This document shows, piece by piece, positions 2,996 to 63,277 of a stretch of 64,000 nucleotides of DNA (the stretch's first letter is position 1; every line of letters begins with the position of its first letter). A program made the position numbers and the translations under genes. Source of the stretch: Eledone cirrhosa (taxonomy: Eukaryota); the NCBI GenBank assembly GCA_964016885.1, contig OZ024751.1, positions 37,758,001 through 37,822,000 of the forward strand, read 5' to 3'. The notes below the pieces were generated by a model that worked only from the letters and a program-made list of their open reading frames with translations, was not told where the DNA came from and did not search any database.

Positions 2996-3488
2996 ATAAG
3001 TTGAAAAAAATGAAAACGAAATTTCATTTCTCACTCTTAGTATGGCACTTACTTTTTTTCATTTTTTCAACTTATCGTTTTCGGTATGCCTGACCGATTT
3101 AACTCACTCAATATGCAAATTAGGCTGCTCAGCCGTTAATTTTCATAAGGAAAGTATATACTTTCGAACGTTCAACTATCTGGCAGATGGGTAAACGGTG
3201 CTGATGATAGCTAACAAGCTTGAAACTAGTACATCGTTCCTGTGTCAGTGTTGAACAAAAAGGTGACGTGGTTGCCTTAACACCGTATGGCATAAATTCA
3301 GGCTGTTCGATTTGTTGACAAACAAACGAACAAAGCAGGCGTTATAATAAACGTCGGCTAAACTGATGCGTGCATATATGTATGTGTACCTGTATGCATA
3401 TGTGTATATATATATATATATATATATGCATGCTACTGTACGTCTGTATACATATATGTATGTACGTATACATACATACTTACATTTA
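2996..3488 (+). mobile_element. Family F HHR element (relative of family E)
   Basis: Homologous to 63099-63564 and 55386-55669; short inversion 2996-3016/3056-3075; TA-rich flanks. Confidence 0.8.
3194..3238 (+). ncRNA. Type I minimal hammerhead ribozyme, family F
   Basis: aacggtg CTGATGA t-agct-aaca-agct-t GAAA ctag TA catcgtt; 7-bp stem I, ACUAGU palindromic stem III, GUA cleavage after 3231. Confidence 0.88.
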
Positions 3489-5460
3489 TATAATTATACA
3501 TATATATATACATGACATACGTGTGTGTTATTCCTGACTGTACACAATAATTTCATTATTATTATTATTATCATTATTATTATTATATGACGAACCTTTG
3601 CATTTTTCGCCTAGTAAATTCCATTTACAATTCATATCTGACTGTGTGTGTATGTGTGTTTGTGAGTGTGTATATATATATATACATGTGTATGTGTTTG
3701 TGTGTGTATAAGCTAGTTACACTTCATTGACGAAATTATTTAATCTGAAACTTGTAATTTTATTATTATTATAATCATCATCATCATCGTCTTTTTGTTC
3801 TCGCTTTCATTTCATGAAAATATGGTGGCTTATTTTTCAGTTAAACACACACAAACACACACGTTTGTCGTGTTTGCCGTGACGCACGTATTTTAATTAT
3901 TCAGCTAAATTATCAAACTGCAACTAACGTCACATATTTAACGTTGCTTCACATTGTTCTATCATTGTTCCAGCTTCAATCTTCACGTTAAACAATGACT
4001 TGCAAGACTTTCTGCTTAAAACCATTGAAGTCTTTTTCGTTGAAGCTTTCCTTTAAATAGCGTTTAAATTACACTTTCCTATTTCAAAGGCTTGCTCTTC
4101 ATTCTTTCTTACCCTCTCATTCCCTCTGTCTCTCCCCCATCTTTACAAACACATTTTATATATAAAATATGCCTTGTGTCTGCTTGTTTGCTACCATTAT
4201 TATATCGTTTTTCATTGTCTTCTATTTACGTCTAGTTTCGCGTTTATCAGCCCTTTATATTCACACAATTCTATCTCACCTTCACATATTCCCATTGCTG
4301 ATTCTCTTGCACATCCTTCGGTTTTAATTCTTCGCTCCCTGTCTATCATTCAATTCTTACGCATCTCTCTCTCTCTCTCTCTCTCTCTCTCTCTCTCTCT
4401 CTCTCTCTCTCTCTCTCTCTCTCGCAGTCCTGCTACTCTTATACCCTTCTCTTTTTAACACTCTAAATACCTATATATCTATCTATTTATCTGGCTGTCT
4501 CTCTTTCTCTTTCGATCCATCTCTCAATCTATCTATCACTGTCAACTCGTATACGTCTTTCTATATCTATCTATCTGCCTATCTATCCATCAATATATTT
4601 CTGTTTATTTCTCTAGTATTCTCCTCTTCTATTATTTCCTACCTATAAATCTCAGCCTGTCATTGTCCATCCATCATATCCTCTTCCTATGCCTCTCTCT
4701 CTGTCTATCTATCTATCTATCGATCTATCTATCTATCTTTCTATCTATCTGTAAGCATGCATTTCTTACACTTCTCTCACCTTTTTTTCTTCTCCTCCCT
4801 CTTCCTCTTCTTTCACTTTCAAGAAATTCAACTTGCTTCTAAAGTCACTAAACTGTTGGGAGACAATATCATTCTGAAGGAATTACCTTTTGGTTCAGTC
4901 GTTCCTTGCTTCTGACGTTTAAGTCGAAAGGCATAAAAGGAAAGACATGTGACACGGTCGAGTTGTTAATTTGATGATTAAGACTGTTGTTTAATGACCC
5001 TTTCAGCATGTGCTATAAACTCTTTGCCCATACACACAACACACACACACAAACACACACACACAACACGTACAAACCTTCACGCGTACACACACCTGAT
5101 ATGGACGCAAGGTTTAAAGACACTCATTCATCTTAAAATTACCAGCAAGTGAGGAGAGTGAATTACACTGAGAGAGGAACTAACACACATAAATATATTA
5201 TTCTCCCATGGCGAGCCATTAATATTCATGGATACGATGCAGGAACTATCTGGAATTTTGGACTTCTGCATCCATTTCCAAACTACAGTAGTAACAGATT
5301 ATACTGAAAGTCATTCTATAGTATAAAATGTAGTCATATATATTAACACGTTATTATTCACCGAGGAGATATATATACTAACACATTTGAACTCAGTCAC
5401 ACTGAAAGATCACCTTAAATATATATTTAGGACAGTAGCAAAGATAATAAGAAGAGAAGA

Positions 5461-5558
5461 GAGACAGAAGTGGATATAGAGGGAGAGATAGAAGTGGATA
5501 TAGAGGGAGAGATAGAAGTAGATATAGAGGGAGAGATAGAAGTGGATATAGAGGGAGA
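5461..5558. repeat. 24-bp minisatellite x4
   Basis: gagatagaagtggatatagaggga repeated. Confidence 0.9.
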
Positions 5559-7109
5559 AAAAGCAACGAAGACAGAGATAGATCGATAGGATGAAAGACT
5601 AGTAAGACAATGGGAGAATATAAAAATGAAAGAGAAAAGACATGAGGTCATTGGAAAGAGAAAGGCGAGGATGAGTATAAAATTAACGGTTGGGAATTAT
5701 GAAATAATGATGCAATTTGAAAAAGAGAACGAAAATGAAAATGAGAAAGTTACAGGAGATTAAGAGAAGACGAGAAAGAAGAAAAGTAGCTGTGAAAATA
5801 GTAAAGAAAGAAAGAGATATGTGGAGAGAAGTAAAGAGAAAATAAAGAATGATGAGCAAATGGAAAGGTAAAATGTAATAGAAAGAACAGAAATTAGATT
5901 CAGGAAAATGTGTTGTGTAGAGTAATAAGAAGTGAAATAGGAATAAACCGAGAGAAATGATGACAATGGTGGAAATAAATCACACTAGTGCTTTACTATT
6001 TCTTATGAACACATGGACTTTTATAGACACCTTTATAGGAACACACATACACAGAAACATGCACACAGAAGGTTACATGATGGGGTGTACATTTGTGTAT
6101 ATGCGTGGGTTTAGTGTGTTTATAGGTGTTTGAAATTGTGTGCATGCGTGTGTGTGTGTGTGTGTGTCTGGGTGTGTGAAAAGAGCGGGAAGGAAAATAT
6201 GAACATAAAACATGGCTGAACTGTAAGAATAACATGAAACGTACTGAAATAGGAAAGAGAATTTCAAGACTATTTGGATTAAGGTTTTACATGTTGCAGT
6301 TACTCTTATTCTTCTTCATGTTTTCGTCATTGTTCTGACGTCATCTGTTATCCTGTGATATATGCTAGTTGATTAACAGTTTAACATTGTTGTTGTTGTT
6401 GCAGTTGTAGTTGTTATAGTTGTTGTTGCTGCTGCTGCTGTTTTATGCTGCCATTACTCTCTTTCTAAAGGATCGTATCGTCGTTAATTTACTATCACGG
6501 GATTCAAAGATTTGCAGATTAACCGTTAACTCTGCAACATGGAACACATGCAGCAATAATAATGGAAGTTGTAAGTATAATGCACATGCAAGACCAACTG
6601 TAGTTACAGCATCTGTGCAATATCTTACATTTACATCATAACTATCAGAAATTGTAGACCATCACCAAGTTTCGAGCTTTTTATGTCAACATTGTAAAGT
6701 TAGATTTTTTTTACTGTATTCTGTTTTGTCGAAGGTCTACAGGACAATAAGGATATACGTTTAGTGCTATAACAATAAAAATAAGTTAAATTCAGTTCTA
6801 AAAGCTTGGTCCTTCATCAAGCTGGAGCTCATAAAGTTTTCATTAGAGTTGAATAGCTGTGAAAACAGTCCACTAGAGGGTGAAACCCAGCCTGATGCTG
6901 TTTTATTTTTGTGTTTTGTTACCCCCCCCCCCCCCCCCCCACACACACACACACGTCAGGGTCTCGCCTCATACTGTAAACGACACAACGCATCCTATAC
7001 AGTCGTTTTCTCTTCTACATGTTTTCTCTTATCGTCTGTTTGCCCGGGTGAATCTAGGTAAGGCAATTAGTAATTAGCTATAACGAATTAATATTCAACT
7101 GTTTAAACT

Positions 7110-7325
7110 TGCTGGATAAGCAGAATTGATAGAGTGTCGGATAAAATGTCCTTGTGGTGTTTGTTCTGTCACTAGACCTTCTCTGTGATGCAGTTCAAAT
7201 CATGCTAAGATCAACTCTGCCTTTCATTCTCCTCGAGTCGATATATTAAAGTGTTAGTTAAGAACTGGGCTTTATTTATTTACTTTACCTTTCCCCAAAA
7301 TTTGCTGGTCTTCTTTCTGAACTAG
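7110..7325 (+). mobile_element. Degenerate SINE (Meta-like central domain)
   Basis: agttcaaatc...ctgcctttcattctcctcgagtcgata...aaatttgctggtctt, similar to 53035-53236. Confidence 0.65.
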
Positions 7326-62327: not shown

Positions 62328-62688
62328 ATATATATATATATATATATATATATATAATATATATTATGTATTATATATATATATTATATATATATATATA
62401 TATTATATATATATATATATTATGTATTATATATATATATTATATATATATATATATTATATATATATATATATATTATATATATATATATATATATTAT
62501 ATATATATATATATATTATATATATATATATATATTATATATATATATATATATTATATATATATAATATATATATATATAATATATATATATTATATAT
62601 ATATATATTATTTATATATATTATATATATATATTATATATATATATTATATATATATATATTATATATATATATATATATTATATAT
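62328..62688. repeat. (TA)n/(TTA) microsatellite
   Basis: Direct reading. Confidence 0.95.
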
Positions 62689-62913
62689 AAACAATTAAGT
62701 TAAAAATGTACATCCACATATGTATACTGAAATACTAGTATGCATATGAATACACACACGTATACATATGTAGATGTACCGAGTTTTTCACTGGTCACTT
62801 TACTGTGAGTGTCCAGCTATTCTGTATGTAAACACACAGACAAACCGGTTTTTAGAGTCATACTGGTTTTTGAGGAAACACCTTTCCTCTATTCTCCAGA
62901 AAGCCAGACAAGG

Positions 62914-62958
62914 AATATTGGACTAGTTTCGATGTTGTTACATCTCATCAGCAATATT
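62914..62958 (-). ncRNA. Type I minimal hammerhead ribozyme, family E copy 1
   Basis: Reverse complement of 63233-63277. Confidence 0.92.
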
Positions 62959-63232
62959 TACCTATCTTCCGGCCTTTCTAGAGAATCGTAAAAGCACATA
63001 TCGTTATATGCTTTTTCTATGAAAATTAGTAGTGGGCAGACTAATTTGCATAGAGCGTGAGTACGTACCGGTTCAACGGTAAACACACAGACAAACCGGT
63101 TTTTATCGTCTCCGTTGAACCGGTACGTACTCACGCTCTATGCAAATTAGTCTGCCCACTACTAATTTTCATAGAAAAAGCATATAACGATATGTGCTTT
63201 TACGATTCTCTAGAAAGGCCGGAAGATAGGTA

Positions 63233-63277
63233 AATATTGCTGATGAGATGTAACAACATCGAAACTAGTCCAATATT
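63233..63277 (+). ncRNA. Type I minimal hammerhead ribozyme, family E copy 2
   Basis: aatattg CTGATGA gatgt-aaca-acatc GAAA ctag TC caatatt; fully canonical core, GUC cleavage after 63270. Confidence 0.93.

Follow-up and report, generated by a model that had tools for sequence, protein, structure and literature searches.

The analysed window is a 64,000-nucleotide (nt) stretch of the Eledone cirrhosa genome (contig OZ024751.1, positions 37,758,001 to 37,822,000 of the forward strand), in which two candidate hammerhead ribozymes with different stem sequences were studied: E at 3190..3240 and F at 63229..63279, both on the plus strand. The window has a GC content of about 31%, is rich in (TA)n repeats and comes from an assembly of 3.0 Gb. 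Among its open reading frames (ORFs), no credible coding frame lies near E or F, and neither the ribozymes nor the F unit are overlapped by any frame of at least 100 aa. Both motifs contain the type I core CUGANGA, GAAA and UH with helix I open, and their sequences and positions were as given in the initial annotation of this DNA. The cores occupy 3201-3207 in E and 63240-63246 in F, and the predicted cut falls directly after N17, which is A3231 in E (GUA) and C63270 in F (GUC). In E, stem I pairs 3195-3200 with 3232-3237, and stem II pairs 3208-3211 with 3218-3221 with a U·U at its base. Loop 2 of E is at 3212-3217 and the helix III palindrome at 3225-3230, while an extension of stem I pairs 3190-3191 with 3239-3240 around an internal loop made up of 3192-3194 and U3238. 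The corresponding parts of F are loop 2 at 63251-63256, the palindrome at 63264-63269 and U1.7 at 63277. An identical second F hammerhead (63695..63745, plus strand) lies 466 nt downstream of the first and is a possible dimer partner for it in a read-through transcript; a third (62912..62962, minus strand) lies on the inverted arm of the F insertion. In Rfam, F matched HH9 (RF02275) best, at 38.9 bits (E=5.8e-9); for E the top-scoring ribozyme model was also HH9, at 18.5 bits (E=0.022). The gathering threshold of this model is 52 bits, and at gathering thresholds Rfam gave no match in the window. The HH9 model has in common with F and E a 6-bp stem I, the flanking UA and U, and a 6-nt A-rich loop.

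The comparison of E with F indicates that the fold has been maintained. Of their 10 stem pairs (six in stem I and four in stem II), 6 differ on both sides, 0 on one side and 4 are unchanged; the probability that 12 changes land by chance in 6 partner pairs is P=0.0017. A standard pair was kept in 5/6 of the double changes, and the sixth, at 10.1-11.1, is G-C in F and U·U in E. The compensatory stem pairs initially proposed were hence upheld, apart from this U·U, which had been omitted. Outside the stems, E and F are identical at 30/31 positions, compared with 238/395 columns aligned elsewhere in the unit (Fisher P=9e-6); stem positions are identical at 8/20. In 20 shuffled controls of the unit alignment, 126-183 columns were identical. 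The paired changes and the non-stem identity therefore indicate that E and F are homologous and that the fold is under constraint. Because the two units are homologous (about 60-65% alike), the E/F covariation, as read from the alignment, is divergence under constraint and not convergence. The stem II differences at 63248 and 63259 co-occur in single contigs of the four sequencing runs compared with F and E. Decay of one copy as the origin of the U·U in E was ruled out, as all 8,128 exact E copies carry it.

Judged by their cores and predicted stems, E and F are homologous type I hammerhead motifs from two related young repeat families that are non-coding, low in GC and dispersed in many copies. 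Genome copies were located by pattern matching, and the family letters H to M are labels coined in this analysis. The copies sampled were among the first 100 places listed per pattern, nearly all on one contig (C1), which biases the sample to young copies there. Exact copies of the 51-mers numbered 8,128 for E and 1,460 for F. A general core pattern had 19,085 genome matches and its reversed control 0, and a pattern excluding E had 19,965 matches compared with 1 for its control. Family M gave 14,367 pattern matches, and the older lineages gave 655 (J and K together) and 59 (L), J, K and L having been retrieved by patterns in which the stems of E and F were excluded. Unit lengths are ~479 nt for E, 466 for F, 420-433 for H and 310 for M. 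Tandem units with a hammerhead in each were found for F in the window and for both the E and F families genome-wide; the E copy of the window on its own has one.

We then aligned 16 real copies from six lineages, hand-picked from 97 variant types. The source list of 97 types had required 6/6 stem I pairs and a YAANNA loop, so that these features are partly built in and lend less weight to the conserved fold, while the extension, stem II and the palindromy of helix III were not imposed by the selection of rows. In this alignment, 93.8% of 224 cells were paired and 11/14 pairs had changed on both sides. The covariation score was 0.71, compared with 0.27 for shuffled alignments (0/500) and <=0.15 for slid ones, with the caveat that mere relatedness of the rows can outscore shuffles; further pair types were no more numerous than in shuffles (431/500). 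RNAalifold found stems I and II and the extension unaided, and unfiltered family majorities agreed with the aligned structure. Selection on the fold, as claimed in the initial annotation, is thus backed by both the E/F covariation and the 16 rows. The catalytic core is fixed across lineages apart from N7, and N17 is A, C or U. A standard pair at 10.1-11.1 is present in 5/16 rows, with U·U, C·A and A·A elsewhere. As part of the joint reading of the replication cycle given below, we tentatively take the six lineages to mark this pair as dispensable, with somewhat less than even confidence.

The extended stem I with an internal loop had been suggested before and was confirmed, as both extension pairs covary and 32/32 cells are paired. 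At 2.11-1.9, E, F, H and M have G-C whereas K and L have A-U, and pair 2.10-1.8 is G-C everywhere except in M, where it is A-U. These 2 bp close a 3x1 internal loop (U-A-W opposite U1.7), in which U2.9, A2.8 and U1.7 are fixed in the alignment; the UA at 2.9-2.8 was also present in 21/30, 12/16 and 10/14 of 60 old copies that had been sought without it. Position 2.7 is A or U and therefore does not pair with U1.7. A U at 2.7 faces U1.7 in H, E2, I, J and M, and stem I accordingly has 6 bp and not the 7 originally drawn. Nor is there an invariant AACA loop: loop 2 consists of six bases (UAANNA) with A2, A3 and A6 fixed and the fourth and fifth variable, and UAAUAA, UAACGA, UAAUGA, UAAUCA and UAAAAA all occur in the genome. 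A U-A pair closing an AACA tetraloop, as given by RNAalifold, was rejected; it is invariant in the 16 rows while neighbouring pairs vary, and other motifs have C at L2.1. Since the motifs fit the canonical type I layout of Rfam HH9, the internal loop may dock with loop 2. The reverse Hoogsteen partners are presumably U1.7 and the last A of loop 2, as in the Schistosoma structure. Such a pair between the loops is conserved in type I motifs (PMC6155905; this and the other published sources are cited here for their accessible parts).

Both insertions in the window are built of two opposed arms with ends at two fixed sites. The forward arm of the E insertion (3056..3488, plus strand; 1497-1929 of locus L001) is shorter than one unit, carries one ribozyme and ends at site 1, into (TA)n, while its inverted arm (2996..3054, minus strand; L001 1437-1495) is only a 59-nt tail that ends at site 2 in (TA)n. 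Because it has one ribozyme and less than one unit, the window E copy is likely a dead-end insertion. In F, the inverted arm (62688..63095, minus strand; L021 1688-2095) ends in (TA)n at site 1 (unit position 233), and the forward arm (63099..64000, plus strand; L021 2099-3038) continues 38 nt beyond the window to site 2 (unit position 302) and (TA)n. With its two ribozymes this forward arm could release a monomer. The full F unit from cut site to cut site (63271..63736, plus strand, 466 nt) is the predicted RNA monomer, and the F tail (63504..63572, plus strand) lies between the two end sites.

Arms were mapped at 52 loci. At 38 of them, two opposed arms lay side by side and both outer ends could be seen; left out were L078 and L007, truncated at the locus edge, L087, whose arms are 5.5 kb apart, L048, which is interrupted, and ten without an opposed arm pair. 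One arm ended at each site in 36/38 insertions (P=2.8e-10 for 36/37 with both ends at a site), the exceptions being L082, with both ends near site 2, and L109, with one end at neither site. Site 1 lies 228-233 nt after the cut in F and 261-265 in E, and site 2 lies 302 nt after it in F and about 315-323 in E. Folding predicts, for E, H and F alike, a small hairpin with site 1 in its loop, and a second conserved hairpin precedes site 2. Nearly all ends of two-armed insertions run into (TA)n and the tail is carried by either arm; both window insertions follow the one-arm-per-site pattern. The features of a non-autonomous Penelope-like element (PLE), namely a tandem with an inverted 5'-truncated copy, a tail at one end and an AT-rich target, were found in 36/38. 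An octamer, ATGCAAAT (3113..3120, plus strand), is conserved in E, H and F (F copy 63140-63147) and absent from M; it may be a promoter element or an RNA hairpin arm. A candidate small nuclear RNA-type promoter, by analogy with newt satellite 2, was rejected in view of family M, which is without the octamer. A family H fragment at 55388-55675, 73% like E over 3221-3478 and adjoined by a short inverted tail piece, is broken inside the ribozyme by another repeat (55665-55842; again at 57345-57523).

The genome also holds frames with both reverse transcriptase (RT) and GIY-YIG domains, of 938 and 1096 aa, some RT scores lying just under the Pfam cut-off. In the literature, PLE insertions show a (TA)n bias, include inverted copies that are 5'-truncated and often carry a tail at one end only (PMC8557442, PMC3846280), and the PLE tail is the segment between two internal RT start sites (PMC11167929). 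For retrozymes, PLE mobilisation and circular templates have been proposed (PMC7229834; 10.64898/2026.07.22.740005). The predicted circular folds of E, H and F had z-scores of -9.0, -7.0 and -9.7 against 40 shuffles each, scores that AT-rich palindromes inflate, and were similar in layout, with stem I continuing into a long basal helix. An autonomous PLE family (L167, L168, L170, L177, L179) has a 3' repeat downstream of its RT-GIY-YIG frame that ends in (TA)n and contains a minimal hammerhead, whose helix III is palindromic and which has U·U at 10.1-11.1; L179 includes a 3.3-kb perfect inverted pair.

We consider it probable that the fold has been kept by compensatory changes and that the motifs likely cut tandem transcripts as dimers, into units for likely Penelope-type re-insertion. 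In the proposed mechanism, docking of the internal loop with loop 2, as in canonical type I hammerheads, would permit cleavage at low Mg2+. Two motifs would pair their palindromes into a 6-bp helix III, and tandem transcripts would be cut well while lone or circular monomers would be cut poorly. The extended stem I would keep the 5'-OH end next to the cyclic-phosphate end so that the two can be ligated into a circle, and a Penelope-like RT/GIY-YIG protein would cut (TA)n and prime both DNA ends at the sites on either side of the tail. The complete dimer-gated RNA-circle cycle, with cutting in tandem only, ligation across stem I, a circle that is switched off, one Penelope RT-endonuclease dimer that primes both ends of a (TA)n break at two coupled sites of one circle, and copying round and round, is a more tentative proposal that we rate slightly below an even chance.

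Several points weigh against the proposed reading. Cleavage, expression and circles are putative here, being predictions from sequence and folds. Both E and F score under the Rfam gathering thresholds and are not filed in RF02275, and the active fold is not the one of lowest energy (with helix III left out, -5.9 vs -10.2 kcal/mol for the E 51-mer and -4.2 vs -7.9 kcal/mol for the F 51-mer). None of the 50 GIY-YIG PLE loci compared, out of 10,595 first-look candidates, had E/F/H-like ends, nested E/F/H copies aside. Of 9 predicted Xenopus retrozyme dimers, 1 cleaved in vitro (10.64898/2026.07.22.740005), and ribozyme mutants were without effect on Poseidon insertion in vitro (PMC11167929). Finally, blocks of 3, 4 and 6 units are repeated inside single arms (A117.9, L076, L078, L023), and arrays therefore also grew after insertion. 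Long arms as proof of rolling-circle copying were accordingly discarded, as the block duplications postdate insertion.

The same block repeats favour an alternative in which the ribozymes are active, yet the template for insertion is a linear tandem transcript that stays uncut and stems from a homogeneous donor array. Cleavage would then serve RNA turnover or end formation, circles would be a by-product, and long arms would be mostly later duplication. The ends of the 36 regular two-armed insertions, which lie 228-323 nt after the cut site and never at it, also fit this alternative, as does the unprocessed RNA that was the dominant substrate of Poseidon in vitro (PMC11167929). However, a circle also predicts ends away from the cut site. 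Both arms of an insertion carry one haplotype, and among 59 sampled arrays 14 variants are each private to a single array and fixed there in 4-16 units over both arms, while ordered unit variants are unmatched between arms, bar one possible case (A69.58). We therefore regard the linear template as rather unlikely. The shared haplotype and the private fixed variants fit either one monomer circle or a homogeneous donor, and the 14 variants may mark small subfamilies.

Some individual arrays deserve description. Scars of adenosine-to-inosine editing were sought among the variants private to one array and were unconfirmed (A>G 18 vs T>C 11, P=0.13). In a single case, L159 (G000:C1:30829501-30837500), three A>G changes at unit positions 336, 340 and 341, in the octamer hairpin, are present in all 12 units of both arms and look like one edited RNA template. 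An E array (G000:C1:69576001-69589000) shows a three-unit pattern (a short unit, a long unit and a C459T unit) in both arms, which a trimeric template, or conversion of one arm by the other, could explain. In an F-type array (G000:C1:5736001-5755000), a 14.3-kb arm of ~31 units stands opposite an arm of 346 nt.

The proposed cutting as dimers is based on helix III. In the initial annotation ACUAGU had been given as stem III. As a hairpin it would have 1 bp with a 4-nt loop (+5.3 kcal/mol); as a duplex of two strands it forms six pairs (-6.2 kcal/mol). It is replaced by ACAUGU in J, by ACGCGU in M and by self-complementary 10-mers in K and L. Helix III is hence self-complementary in 5/5 forms, with energies of -6.0 to -14.8 kcal/mol as duplexes and +1.0 to +5.3 as hairpins, and the central dinucleotides of the 6-mers are UA, AU and GC only. 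These three self-complementary dinucleotides are consistent with selection on a dimer helix, and stem from two independent changes only. Since ACUAGU and its replacements are all self-complementary and ACUAGU forms a single pair as a monomer, E and F likely cut best as dimers. Cleavage as dimers through a short palindromic helix III has been published for metazoan type I motifs (PMC4209133, PMC3088659, PMC7229834). In the alternative, the motifs act as monomers, a helix III of 1 bp is enough when backed by docking, and the palindrome is incidental. A 3-bp helix III can indeed form alone in K and L, and invertebrate retrozyme hammerheads cleaved well as monomers (PMC7229834). We nevertheless find this alternative improbable, given the self-complementarity of all five forms and the restriction of the central bases, arguments of modest weight in view of the few independent events, and given that an axolotl motif with a 1-bp helix III was cleaved to 6% as a monomer and far better as a dimer (PMC7229834). 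The initial drawing was right about the extension, had misdrawn helix III, loop 2 and the length of stem I, and had left out both the likely need for a dimer and the U·U pair.

That the fold is a relic, either a protein-binding structure or one active only in ancestors, with E no longer cleaving owing to its U·U, would agree with the scarcity of standard pairs at 10.1-11.1 and with a predicted minimum that differs from the active fold, but is very improbable, as the core stays fixed (N7 aside, and with N17 confined to A, C or U) while the stems turn over, U10.1-U11.1 is known from active natural hammerheads (PMC3088659, PMC7229834; axolotl HHR_Amex2), and E and M, two families with the U·U, belong to the most amplified.

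The layout of E and F had at first been taken for a new idea and is the canonical type I one. Canonical metazoan type I hammerheads (Schistosoma Sm-alpha, newt satellite 2, axolotl HHR_Amex1/2, HH9) share with them the core, the 6-bp helix I, a 4-position helix II, a 6-nt A-rich loop, a short palindromic helix III and unpaired conserved bases past helix I (PMC4209133, PMC7229834). HHR_Amex2 has a U·U at the base of helix II, and E combines a 1-bp helix III, as in Amex1, with a U·U, as in Amex2. In contrast, the C·A and A·A at 10.1-11.1 in the older lineages are not mentioned in the accessible parts of these two sources, and the extension here has 2 bp around a 3x1 loop whereas the loop of the HH9 model is larger. 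Metazoan non-LTR (lacking long terminal repeats) retrozymes resemble E and F in having non-coding tandem units of <50% GC that each carry one type I hammerhead, dispersed copies by the thousand, a self-paired circular fold and co-occurring PLEs (PMC7229834; 10.64898/2026.07.22.740005). The units here, of 466-479 nt, slightly exceed the 150-450 bp given for those elements, and opposed arms with fixed ends are undescribed in the accessible parts of both papers. Circular RNA has been shown for published metazoan retrozymes, whereas here it is a prediction. Endonuclease-containing (EN+) PLEs are like E and F in their partial tandems, adjacent inverted 5'-truncated copy, one-end tail, (TA)n targets and two internal RT start sites that bound the tail (PMC8557442, PMC11167929, PMC3846280). 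They differ in that the elements here have no ORF, tails of 58-70 nt vs 30-40, a canonical rather than minimal hammerhead, and two arms that are often both multimeric.

On these predicted features, E and F are metazoan non-LTR retrozymes with a canonical type I ribozyme and apparently represent new families; a literature search for cephalopod or octopus cases and related subjects gave no description of them, although subscription papers and supplementary figures of hammerhead variants may hold cases. Both the ribozyme class and the retrozyme class were already known, and the finding itself is unsurprising. New here is that both the extension and the helix III palindrome covary across lineages, along with the corrected anatomy of the ribozyme. 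Tens of thousands of young copies in several lineages form a natural test set, in which the lineages give comparative support for dimer cleavage and the proposed loop-loop contact, and the 10.1-11.1 variants can be assayed. The footprint of one tail per insertion ties retrozymes to Penelope enzymes and makes the proposed copying of a ribozyme-made circle testable in vitro.

Other repeats in the window include two further families of hammerhead-like motifs with a long stem II, one at 57, 9978 and 36328 on the plus strand and 27411 on the minus strand, the other at 56409 on the plus strand and 56274 and 54925 on the minus strand. The helix III regions of both are self-complementary or nearly so, and head-to-head pairs lie at 36025-36433 and 56167-56517. 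A hammerhead-like motif at 9568-9620 has a U·U at the base of stem II and is related to motifs in L169, L173 and L180. An abundant short element with a 117-nt near-perfect palindrome and (TA)n flanks was observed at 289-405, 33071-33191, 56948-57066 and 50175-50233.

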